The position numbers and the translations under genes were made by a program. This document shows, one piece after another, positions 1 to 6,886 of a DNA stretch of 6,886 bases (its first letter is position 1; each line of letters opens with the position of its first letter). The stretch lies in the IMG/VR virus record IMGVR_UViG_2731957842_000003. One strand, written 5' to 3'. The notes under the pieces are model-generated. The model ran no database searches. It had not been told where the DNA came from and saw only the letters and a list, made by a program, of their open reading frames with translations. Origin of the DNA: a virus (taxonomy: Duplodnaviria > Heunggongvirae > Uroviricota > Caudoviricetes).

Positions 1-1241
1 CCCCTGAGCGCGGTTGGTGCTGTTGGCGTTCCGGTCAGTGCCGGACTGTCCAGTGGGGCTTTTCTGTTCGTTTCATCCATTACCACCTTAACCGCCTTTG
101 GCGTTGCAGCAAGCGTTTCAGACGTGCTGTTGGTTGCACTGCTGAGCTGCACTATCCCCTTTCTCGTTGTGTCCGCATCCTCAAGCGCGACAGCTGAAGC
201 TATATCTTCTGCACGTTTTGCCGAATTTTCTGCACGTATTGCCGCCGCTTCTGCCGCACTTTTGCTCTGCGATGCTGATACCGCACTTCCCGCAGCCTCT
301 GTCGCCTTCGTGGATGCCGTTGACGCACTCCCCGCCGCCGCTGTTTTTGCGTCTGCCGCGGCAGAGGCGCTCCGTTCCGCTGCTGTTTCAGATGACCTGG
401 CATTCGTCTCGGACGTTTTTGCCGCCCTGGCAGAATGTTCTGCCGCCGTTGCCGAGGAAGCTGCACGACCGGCACTTGATGATGCGTTCGTTTCTGATGA
501 TTTTGCTGCCTCTTTTGAGGCCACCGCATCTCGTGCTGAAGTGGCGGCCTCTGACGCTTTCGTGGCCGCGGTGGAGGCAGACGTGGCGGCTGATTGTTGT
601 GACGCTGCAGCATTCGTTTCTGACGTTTTCGCCGCACCGGCACTGGTGGCCGCCGCGTTTTTTGAGGACTCTGCGGCTGCGGCACTTTTTTCCGCTTCAG
701 TGGCCTTTGCTGATGCCGCTTCTGCGCCGGAGGACGCTTCCTGAGCTGACGATGCAGCCTGTCCGGCGGACGTGCTGGCGGCGCGTGCTGAGTCAGTTGC
801 ATCAGTCACAAGGGCCGCGACCTGAGCAGCTGATGCACTGGCATCGCCGGCTGATTTCTTCGCGTCTGCCGTACTCTGTGCCACCACGGACGCGTTACGC
901 GCCACCTCTTCCACCATCAGTTCAAGACGACGCAGCACCTCCGGCCGGGCATCATCCTCCGTCATGGCACAGAGAAAATCATTCAGCGTCCCCGGTTGTG
1001 AATCTTCATACACGGTGATGGTCCCGGCGTGCGATGGTGGAAAACCGTCAACCTGCAGGATGACACTGTACTGACCGTACTCCACATCCATGCTGTAACG
1101 CCCGGCTTCATCCGGATTCTCTGAGCCCACCGTGTTCACCACCACCGTGGTGCTGTTACGTCTGGCTTTCAGCTGAATGGTGCAGTTCTGTACCGGTTTT
1201 CCTGTGCCGTCTTTCAGGACTCCTGAAATCTTTACTGCCAT
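1..1241 (-). CDS. stf: Side tail fiber protein Stf, N-terminal 413 codons; the gene continues past the left edge of the window
   Basis: Minus-strand ATG at 1241-1239 (purine-rich GGGGTG 5 nt upstream). My in-frame translation runs MAVKISGVLKDGTGKPVQNCTIQLKARRNSTTVVVNTVGSENPDEAGRYSMDVEYGQYSVILQVDGFPPSHAGT...KAPLDSPALTGTPTAPTALRG with no stop down to position 3. It matches recalled lambda Stf (orf-401) N-terminus almost residue for residue. It is absent from the ORF track because there is no stop inside the window. Confidence 0.9.
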   Translation of the reverse strand, partial: MAVKISGVLKDGTGKPVQNCTIQLKARRNSTTVVVNTVGSENPDEAGRYSMDVEYGQYSVILQVDGFPPSHAGTITVYEDSQPGTLNDFLCAMTEDDARPEVLRRLELMVEEVARNASVVAQSTADAKKSAGDASASAAQVAALVTDATDSARAASTSAGQAASSAQEASSGAEAASAKATEAEKSAAAAESSKNAAATSAGAAKTSETNAAASQQSAATSASTAATKASEAATSARDAVASKEAAKSSETNASSSAGRAASSATAAEHSARAAKTSETNARSSETAAERSASAAADAKTAAAGSASTASTKATEAAGSAVSASQSKSAAEAAAIRAENSAKRAEDIASAVALEDADTTRKGIVQLSSATNSTSETLAATPKAVKVVMDETNRKAPLDSPALTGTPTAPTALR

Positions 1242-1252
1242 ATTCACCCCAC

Positions 1253-1278
1253 AAAAAAGCCCACCGGTTCCGGCGGGC
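1253..1278 (-). terminator. Rho-independent terminator between the lom remnant and stf
   Basis: On the minus strand: GCCCGCCGG-aa-CCGGTGGGC (9-bp stem with one G-U pair, plus-strand 1259-1278) followed directly by TTTTTT (plus-strand A-run 1253-1258). It lies 17 nt after the lom stop region and 12 nt before the stf start. Confidence 0.55.
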
Positions 1279-1305
1279 TGTCATAACACTGTGTTACCTG
1301 GCTAA

Positions 1306-5638
<4,333 letters not shown>

Positions 5639-5667
<29 letters not shown>

Positions 5668-6187
5668 CAATCCACCCGCCTACGTTCTCACCAGCTTTAG
5701 CTGCAACGTTGGAGGCTTTTGCGATTTCAGTTTTCACCACATCAAGGTGTGACGGTGAAATATCCGGATATTTACGCTGTAATGTCAGCGGCACACGTAC
5801 AAGTATCCCCGAAATCTCCTGTGCCACACGTTGCAGAATGAAGGTAAACAATTCCGTTTCCAGTACCAGCCCTTCTTCGCGGGCATTTTTCAGTTCCTGT
5901 GCATCAGCCTGTGCTTTTGTGAGTCGGTAGCGCTCATAGTCAATGGTGCCGGGTTGTAAATCTGATTCCGCAGCCGCACGCAAATCCTCGGTCTCTTTGC
6001 GGAGTTTTTCGTTTTCAATATCGGCTTCGCGCTGCGCATACCACTGAATTGCCATGGCGGTATCAAATACAGATTCAACCCCCTTACTACCACCAGAGAC
6101 ACAAGAGAGCCCTTGAGACTGCCAGCGTTCAATCGTTCGTGGATCCACGTTGAAAATTTCCGCGAGCTTCTTTTTATTAACCTTCAT
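5639..6187 (-). CDS. nu1: Terminase small subunit (gpNu1-like), apparently full length (182 aa)
   Basis: ATG at 6187-6185 gives [26 protein letters not shown]...[10 protein letters not shown]...[28 protein letters not shown]..., matching recalled lambda Nu1 (MEVNKKQLADIF...IENEKLRRE...[28 protein letters not shown]) at roughly 55-60% identity. The track ORF runs 18 nt further to a TTG at 6205. Stop at 5641-5639. The start lies about 180 bp from the putative cosN, as in lambda. Confidence 0.9.
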
Positions 6188-6212
6188 AAAACATTTCCAT
6201 ATCAAATGCAGG

Positions 6213-6265
6213 GTCCGACATGGAAGTGCTCAAAAACGTCTTTTTCGGGCACTTTCATGTCGGAC
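6213..6265. promoter_or_regulatory. Putative cosB: inverted pair of 16-bp repeats, candidate terminase (Nu1) R-sites
   Basis: GTCCGACATGGAAGTG at 6213-6228 and its near-perfect inverted copy (reverse complement of 6250-6265 is GTCCGACATGAAAGTG), 15 of 16 identical. A weaker related motif GTACCGACACG sits at 6313-6323. An A-tract (6285-6292) lies between repeats and cosN. The position between cosN and the Nu1 start matches lambda cosB organisation. Confidence 0.4.
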
Positions 6266-6363
6266 CTTTTACGGATGTGATTGATGAAAAAACAATGAGT
6301 TATACACGAGAAGTACCGACACGCTTTTTCCCGAAAAATTTTCATAAATAGCGAAAATCCGCG

Positions 6364-6375
6364 CCGCTGCCGCCC
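6364..6375. other. Putative cosN cohesive-end sequence of a lambdoid cos site, with a cosQ-like flank at 6391-6406
   Basis: Plus strand 6344-6380 ATAAATAGCGAAAATCCGCG|CCGCTGCCGCCC|CGTGG is collinear with the reverse complement of the recalled lambda cos junction (ATAAATAGCGAAAACCCGCG|AGGTCGCCGCCC|CGTAAC). The implied 12-nt 5' overhang is GGGCGGCAGCGG versus lambda GGGCGGCGACCT. Adjacent 6391-6406 (reverse complement ACGGGTCCTTCCGGTG) resembles the recalled lambda right-end sequence ACGGGTCCTTTCCGGTG. Confidence 0.6.
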
Positions 6376-6729
6376 CGTGGCAGACCACCCCACCGGAAGG
6401 ACCCGTACAAATAGAGTTATTATTAATTACATTTACAGTAGGAATGATGTACATCATTGAAACACCATTCAGTCATATACCGACAGCATTCGGTGTTGCA
6501 CTTCATAACTCTGCGACTACGGTTATAAAAGCATTGGCTACTTTTGCCACCGGCAAATCTTCAATGGATTTCCCCTGCCGGTTTTTTATTTTCATCGATG
6601 CATAACATTGCTTTTACATCAATAGCAGCTATTGTCAGTAGTATGTTGTATCGATGCATGGGTGGTATTGGCGATCTTCGCCGACCGGTTCTGTGTAGCT
6701 CCCTATGACCGGTTTTTTTATTTCTAAGA

Positions 6730-6766
6730 TTATAGAAGTCCTTCACTGTATGAAGGACTTCTATAA
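6730..6766. repeat. Perfect 16-bp inverted repeat with 5-nt loop; possible terminator or protein-binding palindrome
   Basis: 6730-6745 TTATAGAAGTCCTTCA pairs perfectly with 6751-6766 TGAAGGACTTCTATAA, loop CTGTA. T-rich DNA flanks it on the plus strand (GGTTTTTTTATTT upstream, CTTCTTACTTTGTAATTTT downstream). Confidence 0.5.
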
Positions 6767-6831
6767 CGCTTCTTACTTTGTAATTTTCGCACCTTCCGGT
6801 AATTCCATAGGTTAAAAAAACCTCATAATCT

Positions 6832-6860
6832 CTGACAATTTGATCCTACCCACGTAATAT
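6832..6860 (+). promoter_or_regulatory. Weak sigma70-like promoter candidate reading rightward out of the window
   Basis: CTGACA (6832-6837), 17-bp spacer, TAATAT (6855-6860), in AT-rich intergenic DNA. The match to the TTGACA / TATAAT consensus is partial only. Confidence 0.2.
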
Positions 6861-6886
6861 GGACACAGGCCTTAGCGAGGTTCTGG

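Follow-up and report, generated by a model that had tools for sequence, protein, structure and literature searches.

What is a perfect 16-bp palindrome doing in AT-rich DNA beside the cos site of a phage? The question is raised by a 6,886-nucleotide stretch of Caudoviricetes DNA (IMG/VR record IMGVR_UViG_2731957842_000003; the whole stretch is referred to below as the window). A first-pass annotation made from the letters alone picked out an inverted repeat at 6730-6766 as unlikely to have arisen by chance, and offered three explanations for it: a plus-strand or bidirectional terminator, an operator for a dimeric regulator, or a recombination site. The two 16-nt arms, TTATAGAAGTCCTTCA at 6730-6745 and TGAAGGACTTCTATAA at 6751-6766, are 100% complementary and are separated by a 5-nt loop at 6746-6750. 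This is the longest inverted repeat of the whole window, and when we counted perfect inverted repeats with loops of 3-12 nt in 300 dinucleotide-Markov randomisations of the window, none was longer than 11 bp. Folding the RNA of both strands, a check that had been called for, gave stable structures of -24.2 kcal/mol (z = -6.7) for the plus strand and -25.7 kcal/mol (z = -9.3) for the minus strand. The surroundings are indeed AT-rich, with a GC content of 38.5% at 6400-6840 vs 54% over the entire window. The view of the palindrome as a non-random, structure-forming element is thus borne out. On the minus strand, the 16-bp stem is extended by G·U and U·G closing pairs to a stem-loop at 6728-6768, hereafter H, and the strand reads CGUUAUAGAAGUCCUUCA-UACAG-UGAAGGACUUCUAUAAUC across the palindrome.

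The genomic setting of the palindrome is that of a decayed prophage. The window is 100% identical to sequence in E. coli chromosomes, and in E. coli VG48B2 it belongs to a badly degraded lambdoid prophage adjoining potB. In window orientation, the left part of this prophage carries tail-fibre genes, a lom fragment, a truncated J and a Nu1-type gene fused directly to the J fragment, while the right part carries cos, the palindrome, an IS3 copy from 6841, DUF1398 and bor on the plus strand, and then the lysis genes, Q and the rest on the minus strand. The direction of late transcription is therefore right to left, along the minus strand. Downstream of H, the first packaging gene on this strand encodes the terminase small subunit (Nu1 family; 5639-6205, minus strand; Pfam Phage_Nu1, E = 2.6e-83). 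This gene overlaps the truncated J tail-tip pseudogene (window 1-6205 corresponds to L001 5858-8888) in a prophage that is heavily deleted, and the large terminase gene, the head genes and most tail genes are therefore gone. The palindrome was placed to the right of cos by the first-pass annotation, correctly so: besides the position of the Nu1 gene, the right end of the deposited genome of phage cdtI aligns exactly to window 6376, and the surrounding cosN-like region (6340-6380, minus strand) reads GGGGCGGCAGCGGCGCGGATTTTCGCTATTTATGAAAA, which we take to resemble the cos of lambda.

On its other side, the palindrome is now cut off from the rest of the prophage by IS3. The left end of the IS3 copy occupies 6841-6886, with the transposase on the minus strand; the insertion point is 74 bp to the right of H, which is now split from the DUF1398, bor and lysis genes. 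The insertion is recent, since the relatives C41 (99% identity) and 357900 (91%) are uninterrupted, and the uninterrupted contigs L002 and L003 continue past 6840. In C41 and 357900, DUF1398 starts about 95 nt past the position of window 6840, and IS3 occupies the region formerly upstream of DUF1398. The single sigma-70-like site in 6100-6886 (CTGACA, 17 nt, TAATAT, at 6832-6860) spans the junction of phage DNA and IS3 end and is therefore a hybrid made by the insertion. Far to the left, in the tail-fibre region, a weak isrG-like Rfam match at 548-661 (16.5 bits vs a gathering score of 100, E = 0.34) is almost certainly noise.

Directly upstream of H on the minus strand lies what is left of a gene. 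Translations, an alignment of relatives (A1) and a PHROG match identify the last 11 codons and stop of a late accessory gene of the PHROG 1935 family (MELPEGAKITK) at 6773-6808, the TAA stop at 6775-6773 being 4 nt before H. The corresponding full-length gene of a relative ends in MELPEGAVVTE and a stop. Consistent with this, the distant relatives STEC409 and RM10740 carry a 98-aa minus-strand gene of PHROG 1935, a family without assigned function, whose stop lies a few nt before the hairpin. Only the 11 terminal codons are left in the window, so the body of the gene upstream of the hairpin has been replaced in the window lineage, and the replacement breakpoint falls within the C-terminus of the PHROG 1935 gene.

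Conservation of the palindrome among relatives, a further check that had been proposed, turned out strongly positive. The cos-side flank is common to 71 IMG/VR contigs and several E. coli genomes. When the 18 distinct hairpin variants from these contigs and E. coli loci were aligned (A2), 89% of the cells were paired and five pairs were changed on both sides; pairing intermediates are found as well, such as a G·A mismatch in L003 that is compensated in L042. A manual tally of the wobble cells in the same alignment gave about 17 on the plus strand vs 20 on the minus strand. A dispersed repeat was also considered and rejected, since there is just one copy of H in the window and in each of the E. 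coli cos-type loci; the covariance model R1, described below, finds no second copy in the window. One 20-mer of the cos-side flank, ATGCATGGGTGGTATTGGCG, also occurs in three contigs of Sphingomonas type and Legionella (L077-L079), and these are chance matches rather than homologues, because the sequence diverges right after the 20-mer.

The same relatives bear on an open reading frame at 6561-6746 (61 aa) whose start lies in the hairpin loop. It had been dismissed as a spurious frame seeded by the palindrome, and rightly: in 52 of the 71 relatives a G>A change at window 6653 creates a TGA just after the internal ATG, and out-of-frame indels occur among relatives at 6699-6713. The related remark, that the palindromic motif reads as MKDFY on both strands, needs a minor correction. 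On the plus strand the start is an ATG at 6750, and on the minus strand, where the listed frame 6561-6746 begins, it is a GTG at 6746 instead of an ATG.

Between cos and H lie further elements that call for description. Two copies of GACCGGTT at 6683-6690 and 6707-6714 and a T7 run at 6713-6719 are found exactly where they had been reported, and the terminator-like arrangement suggested for them is plausible on the plus strand, as judged by the fold. The hairpin (6683-6720, plus strand) converges on H from the cos side; the segment 6670-6730 folds at -18.7 kcal/mol on the plus strand, a value that includes a hairpin at 6670-6682 as well. Its stem is well formed in some relatives, and a mismatch breaks it in the commonest variant. 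Counting a second element at 6549-6592, there are two plus-strand terminator-like hairpins with T-runs, both pointing away from cos and antisense to the late operon.

Overlapping these is a conserved 131-bp block at 6578-6724 with 16-nt direct repeats at its ends (CCGGTTTTTTATTTTC at 6578-6593 and CCGGTTTTTTTATTTC at 6709-6724). The block is missing from L159, L096 and L120 and, judging by spacing, from cdtI, with H lying 131 bp closer to cos. In relatives without it the hairpin joins the left repeat directly, and elsewhere the block is almost invariant; it looks like an indel arising by repeat-mediated deletion or insertion. Within it, at 6594-6708, relatives differ mainly at every third base (10 of 17 substitutions in 6594-6653 on recount). 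Candidate reading frames over this pattern are a hydrophobic 36-aa frame on the plus strand (MHNIAFTSIAAIVSSMLYRCMGGIGDLRRPVLCSSL, 6598-6708) or a 25-32-aa frame on the minus strand; the pattern fits either, because the two share their third codon positions. Neither small frame has a Shine-Dalgarno sequence or a Pfam or PHROG match, and a protein search with the 36-aa frame returned only four unnamed database entries.

Searches beyond the close relatives revealed that the palindrome of the window is a derived member of a conserved family of stem-loops of about 37-41 nt, to which we extend the name H. Phages of E. coli, Salmonella, Klebsiella and Edwardsiella carry upwards of 300 instances of it, which fall into 211 distinct contexts. 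The PHROG 1935 gene led to 80 further loci and the stem motif to more than 240, and a pattern that excluded the E. coli upper-stem sequence found H in at least 120 contigs. A 62-nt query matched phiP27, cdtI, phi458, Salmonella Fels-1, ten Klebsiella phages and Edwardsiella EPP-1. In all six annotated loci, H is located between the lysis genes and the terminase/cos region. It lies between lysis and terminase genes in phiP27, Fels-1 and a Klebsiella phage, and about 220 bp from the genome end in cdtI.

The canonical element reads CAUUA-CA-upper stem-GA-UAAUG, in which the upper stem consists of 10 variable base pairs, usually closed by a 3-nt loop. The base of H is often extended by G-G...C-Y, and conservation of the flanks is confined to positions -3 to -1 (AGG) and +1 to +2 (C/T, T/C). 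Members were gathered with sequence patterns that fixed the basal stem and left the upper stem unconstrained, so the invariance of the basal stem is partly a matter of ascertainment and only the upper stem provides an unbiased test. The conserved 3' end UAAUG (window 6730-6734, minus strand) has the form of a stop-start overlap motif, and a GAGG-like run is present in the 3' arm about 8 nt before it. This resemblance is probably a by-product of the CAUUA/UAAUG stem, because the AUG is out of frame with the downstream gene in all three loci checked.

The window copy is homologous to canonical H copies by flank alignment. R1, trained on 70 rows of which the window sequence is one, gives 6728-6768 a score of 36.7 bits (E = 1.9e-6) when read on the minus strand and one of 30.7 bits when read on the plus strand. 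Its position is that of the family: 4 nt after a same-strand stop codon, and between the lysis genes, now past IS3, and cos and Nu1. It departs from the canonical form in its pairing. The CA/GA 2x2 internal loop is replaced by U-A and A-U pairs and the habitual wobbles by Watson-Crick pairs, leaving no wobble within the 16 bp. The perfect palindrome in the window is therefore the outcome of closing the internal loop and correcting the wobbles.

We then asked of the family what the window copy cannot tell; a perfect palindrome is symmetrical and so by itself says nothing on strand. In an alignment of 70 distinct variants (A3), nine of the 10 pairs of the upper stem have been altered on both sides, and 95% of the cells are paired; none of 500 shuffles reached the covariation score, and slid registers collapse. 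On the gene-sense strand we counted 108 G·U cells vs 15 A·C cells, with one pair most often U·G (47 of 70 variants), although many variants are related by descent and the cell counts, like the binomial p-value, overstate their independence. The sense-strand fold is the more stable in 21 of 26 variants as scored (22 with the L085 row reoriented) and in nearly all of 60 listed variants, and R1 gives the sense strand the better score wherever a copy is confidently matched in the window and 15 annotated loci. Long reading frames lie on the strand of the hairpin in 196 of 210 contexts, and the direction of the strand bias is consistent across genera. These comparisons establish H as a discrete conserved unit on the late-operon strand, its pairing kept by compensatory changes and sense-strand G·U. 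The question of strand, undecided by the close relatives, is resolved by the wider family in favour of the minus, late-gene strand.

H is also tightly placed with respect to genes. A reading frame of at least 50 codons ends 0-11 nt upstream of H in 153 of the 211 contexts (73%; mode 2 nt), vs 5.8% of random positions in the same loci. At least six unrelated families of reading frames precede H, and in about a quarter of the contexts no reading frame ends just upstream. A stable, GC-containing hairpin directly 3' of stop codons, with five G-C pairs in the stem of the window copy as befits an intrinsic terminator, raises the possibility that H is an intrinsic and perhaps bidirectional terminator of non-antiterminated accessory ('moron') transcription, or a backup for the plus-strand hairpin at 6683-6720. 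Morons were reportedly described with flanking stem-loop terminators by Juhala et al. in 2000. The plus-strand tail is pyrimidine-rich in the clade of the window, and T-rich tails follow H in a few contexts, for example L088 and L100 (TTTTTGGTTTTTGG).

Most of what follows H, however, argues against termination. A T-rich tail, taken as at least 5 T in 8 nt, is present in only 21 of 211 contexts (10%). The window itself has 4 T in 8 nt on the plus strand and 3 on the minus strand, in agreement with the earlier remark that a clean U-tract is lacking, and a terminator scan of the window reported nothing at H. A separate canonical terminator adjoins H in L084, L108, EPP-1 and the 'b' variant. In several other loci the next late gene, with its ribosome-binding site and ATG, comes directly after H, and its start lies within about 20 nt. 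The same-strand genes after H are terminase, HNH or cos-Nu1, so that H does not mark the end of a transcription unit, and these essential late genes need read-through. In the PHROG 1935 loci, H is followed by the cos-proximal module, by HNH or terminase genes or by a second canonical terminator, and rarely by a U-rich tail. Moreover, the strand asymmetry of H speaks against any plus-strand function. A plus-strand or bidirectional terminator is thus not supported, wobble asymmetry and reading-frame positions both pointing to the minus strand, and we regard a terminator role of any of these kinds as distinctly unlikely.

The operator proposal fares worse. It is suggested by the perfect dyad symmetry of the window copy and by its location, H being about 170-205 bp upstream of the DUF1398 start codon in uninterrupted relatives, as might suit a dimeric regulator of the divergent DUF1398 and bor genes. 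Across the family, however, the arm-to-arm spacing varies from 3 to 13 nt and the arm sequence of the upper stem changes with pairing kept. Most copies are asymmetric because of their G·U pairs and CA/GA internal loop, and most have no DUF1398 neighbour; in the window, the promoter scan found no promoter-like site overlapping H. An operator is the least tenable of the rival readings and already disfavoured; we consider it highly improbable.

The third proposal, a recombination site, is partly upheld. About 18 upstream and 20 downstream flank types surround H, and homology between phages stops exactly at the base of the stem on either side. In one instance, L105 (982-1853) differs from L120 (at 944) by an 834-bp insertion that holds a reading frame of about 200 aa and is bounded by two H copies, with the same flanks. 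The insert contains a 3'-end remnant of PHROG 1935 beside its own H copy, which points to ordinary or relaxed homologous recombination, for which there is background in phages (PMC3945230), rather than to site-specific exchange. A search for empty sites of H-bounded arrays yielded this one case, L105 (duplicated in L258) vs L120, too few to argue for site-specific mobility. What stands is an evolutionary junction; a dedicated recombinase is not implied.

H also occurs in arrays. In many Klebsiella-type contigs, two to three co-oriented H copies about 311 nt apart bracket a DUF2560-like gene. L346 (6083-6764), L335 and L300 each contain three co-oriented copies about 311-330 nt apart, one interval with the DUF2560-like gene and another with a small antisense reading frame and its own terminator. 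The middle copy of L346 keeps its orientation though it is preceded by the antisense mini-cassette, which fits a cassette boundary at the DNA level better than a 3' UTR element. H might accordingly be asked to act primarily as DNA, as a single-stranded hairpin or a short homology patch for the capture and shuffling of cassettes, with the RNA structure as a by-product. The arrays around single small genes, the copy behind the antisense cassette, the breaks of homology at the stem base and the indel between two copies all agree with such a role, and the G·T pairs of the sense strand would be tolerable in single-stranded DNA too. On the other hand, the six annotated loci showed no conspicuous recombinase gene beside H, the remnant in L105 is what ordinary homologous or relaxed recombination would leave, and the tight spacing to stop codons suits an mRNA element better. 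We therefore hold a primarily DNA-level role to be unlikely. A bolder version would make H the boundary signal of a new late-operon cassette system, in which units of a gene and its H are captured, duplicated and exchanged and H also shapes late mRNA processing. Exchange would then proceed through the folded hairpin in single-stranded DNA, or through a factor recognising the invariant CAUUACA/GAUAAUG base, and H would be a functional counterpart of the attC sites of integrons or the PeSL motifs of T4-type phages. We mention this version as a long shot.

The reading we prefer, at roughly even chances on the strength of the sequence comparisons, is that H functions as an intercistronic hairpin in late mRNA, read from the late strand and passed by polymerase without termination, and doubles as a joint for module exchange, and that the window copy is an inactive relic. 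There, H would protect the 3' end of the message of the upstream accessory gene from decay or mark a site at which that message is processed, and Q-modified polymerase would read past it into the packaging genes. Its proposed part in module exchange follows from its being about 40 nt common to many phages. A generic decay barrier is weakened as a reading, because it leaves the near-invariant base and the CA/GA loop unexplained; these two features suggest a specific recognising factor. In the window lineage, the gene of H has been replaced by the oppositely oriented DUF1398-bor module, and IS3 now stands between H and the late promoter. With the gene lost, IS3 and opposed genes in between, and a prophage without most morphogenetic genes, the window H is most likely an inactive relic.

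A stronger claim about the window copy is that it is functionless altogether and owes its symmetry to correction of a quasipalindrome by intra-strand template switching, persisting in a dead prophage. The state of the prophage, heavily deleted and disrupted by IS3 with the hairpin's gene down to 11 codons, is in line with this. So is the fact that all wobble and internal-loop positions were 'corrected' at once in the clade, since simultaneous correction of a quasipalindrome is the expected mark of template switching (PMC8794818). Against it, relatives that look intact have the identical perfect form, and clade members differ by at least three more steps, each fully compensated (L016, then the window; L003, then L042). 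It also covers the derived copy only and leaves the conserved H family unaccounted for. We judge this explanation improbable as a whole; the perfect symmetry of the window copy could equally reflect selection for pairing or template-switch correction.

For the window, then, the message is modest: the palindrome is probably a relic in a dead prophage and not a new regulatory site. The family has wider consequences. The region between the lysis and packaging genes is a site of accessory cargo in temperate phages of E. coli, Salmonella and Klebsiella, and H is a strand-specific 40-nt delimiter of the cargo genes that coincides with recombination breakpoints, for which a consensus, a structure and a covariance model are now available. 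It offers a handle on how late polycistronic mRNA is partitioned and how modules are exchanged in mosaic genomes. It also helps annotation, by explaining spurious reading frames that start in the palindrome and by marking the ends of small genes.

The H family appears to be undescribed so far; it belongs to a known kind of element, the conserved intergenic stem-loop at cassette borders. A literature search by sequence strings gave only unrelated primer matches, and one for boundary stem-loops in lambdoid phages found no description of H. The covariance models of Rfam 15, which include AgvB, AsxR, STnc100 and isrG, gave no match at H in the window (E up to 1) or at canonical H in the phiP27, Klebsiella, Fels-1 and EPP-1 loci (E up to 5). 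The prophage small RNAs AgvB, AsxR, PasA, PasC and PasD were considered as identities for H and rejected, each mapping to another position: AgvB and AsxR downstream of pR' (PMC4104026), the three Pas RNAs close to the Q and holin genes (bioRxiv 10.64898/2026.05.13.724894). Fels-1 does have a strong match to the STnc100 small RNA (L265 559-777; 82.7 bits), just upstream of the holin gene and about 1.7 kb before the hairpin.

Several known systems resemble H in part. Like the attC sites of integrons, H copies are imperfect hairpins at the 3' ends of cassettes, occur in co-oriented arrays, are strand-asymmetric, and have a conserved base and a variable middle. Unlike attC, the H consensus has no R''/R' core sites (RYYYAAC/GTTRRRY), and H is much shorter and lies in a phage late operon; in the six annotated loci, the 2-9 kb that flank H contain no annotated integrase. 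The intrinsic terminators that flank morons share with H the position of a stem-loop just past the stop codon of an accessory gene, downstream of the lysis genes, and differ from it in that about 90% of H copies have no U-tract and are followed by late genes that must be transcribed.

Two RNA-level systems resemble the role that we favour. REP elements share with H an imperfectly palindromic sequence, a length of about 35-40 nt and a place within operons directly after a stop codon, and the malE-malF REP reportedly forms an intercistronic hairpin that blocks 3'-5' exonucleases without terminating transcription (work of Newbury et al., 1987). In contrast to H, REPs are chromosomal, are present in hundreds of copies, follow another consensus and are linked to RAYT transposases, whereas H is phage-borne, occurs in one to three copies per genome and has its own basal motif, CAUUACA...GAUAAUG. 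The RNase III sites of T7, such as R0.3 and R1.1, are likewise hairpins between cistrons, interrupted by an internal loop, in a long polycistronic mRNA of a phage, and cleavage there reportedly leaves a protective 3' hairpin on the upstream message (Dunn and Studier, 1983). H is shorter (about 7 bp, a 2x2 internal loop and 10 bp) and bears no sequence similarity to these sites; its predicted geometry of about 17-19 bp with an internal loop is only compatible with an RNase III processing site.

A parallel for H as a junction is found in a different kind of phage. The PeSL motifs of T4-type phages are promoter-early stem-loops between small accessory genes in hyperplastic regions (PMC2839356, PMC4122927). 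A PeSL combines an early promoter with a terminator-like stem-loop, whereas H has no conserved promoter-like flank and no hexamer pair. PeSLs belong to lytic T4-like myoviruses and H to the late operon of temperate siphovirus-type phages, and the sequences are unrelated. Nevertheless, both are short, conserved, repeated stem-loops at the borders of insertions, deletions and replacements, and PeSLs have been proposed to mediate modular shuffling (PMC2839356, PMC4122927).
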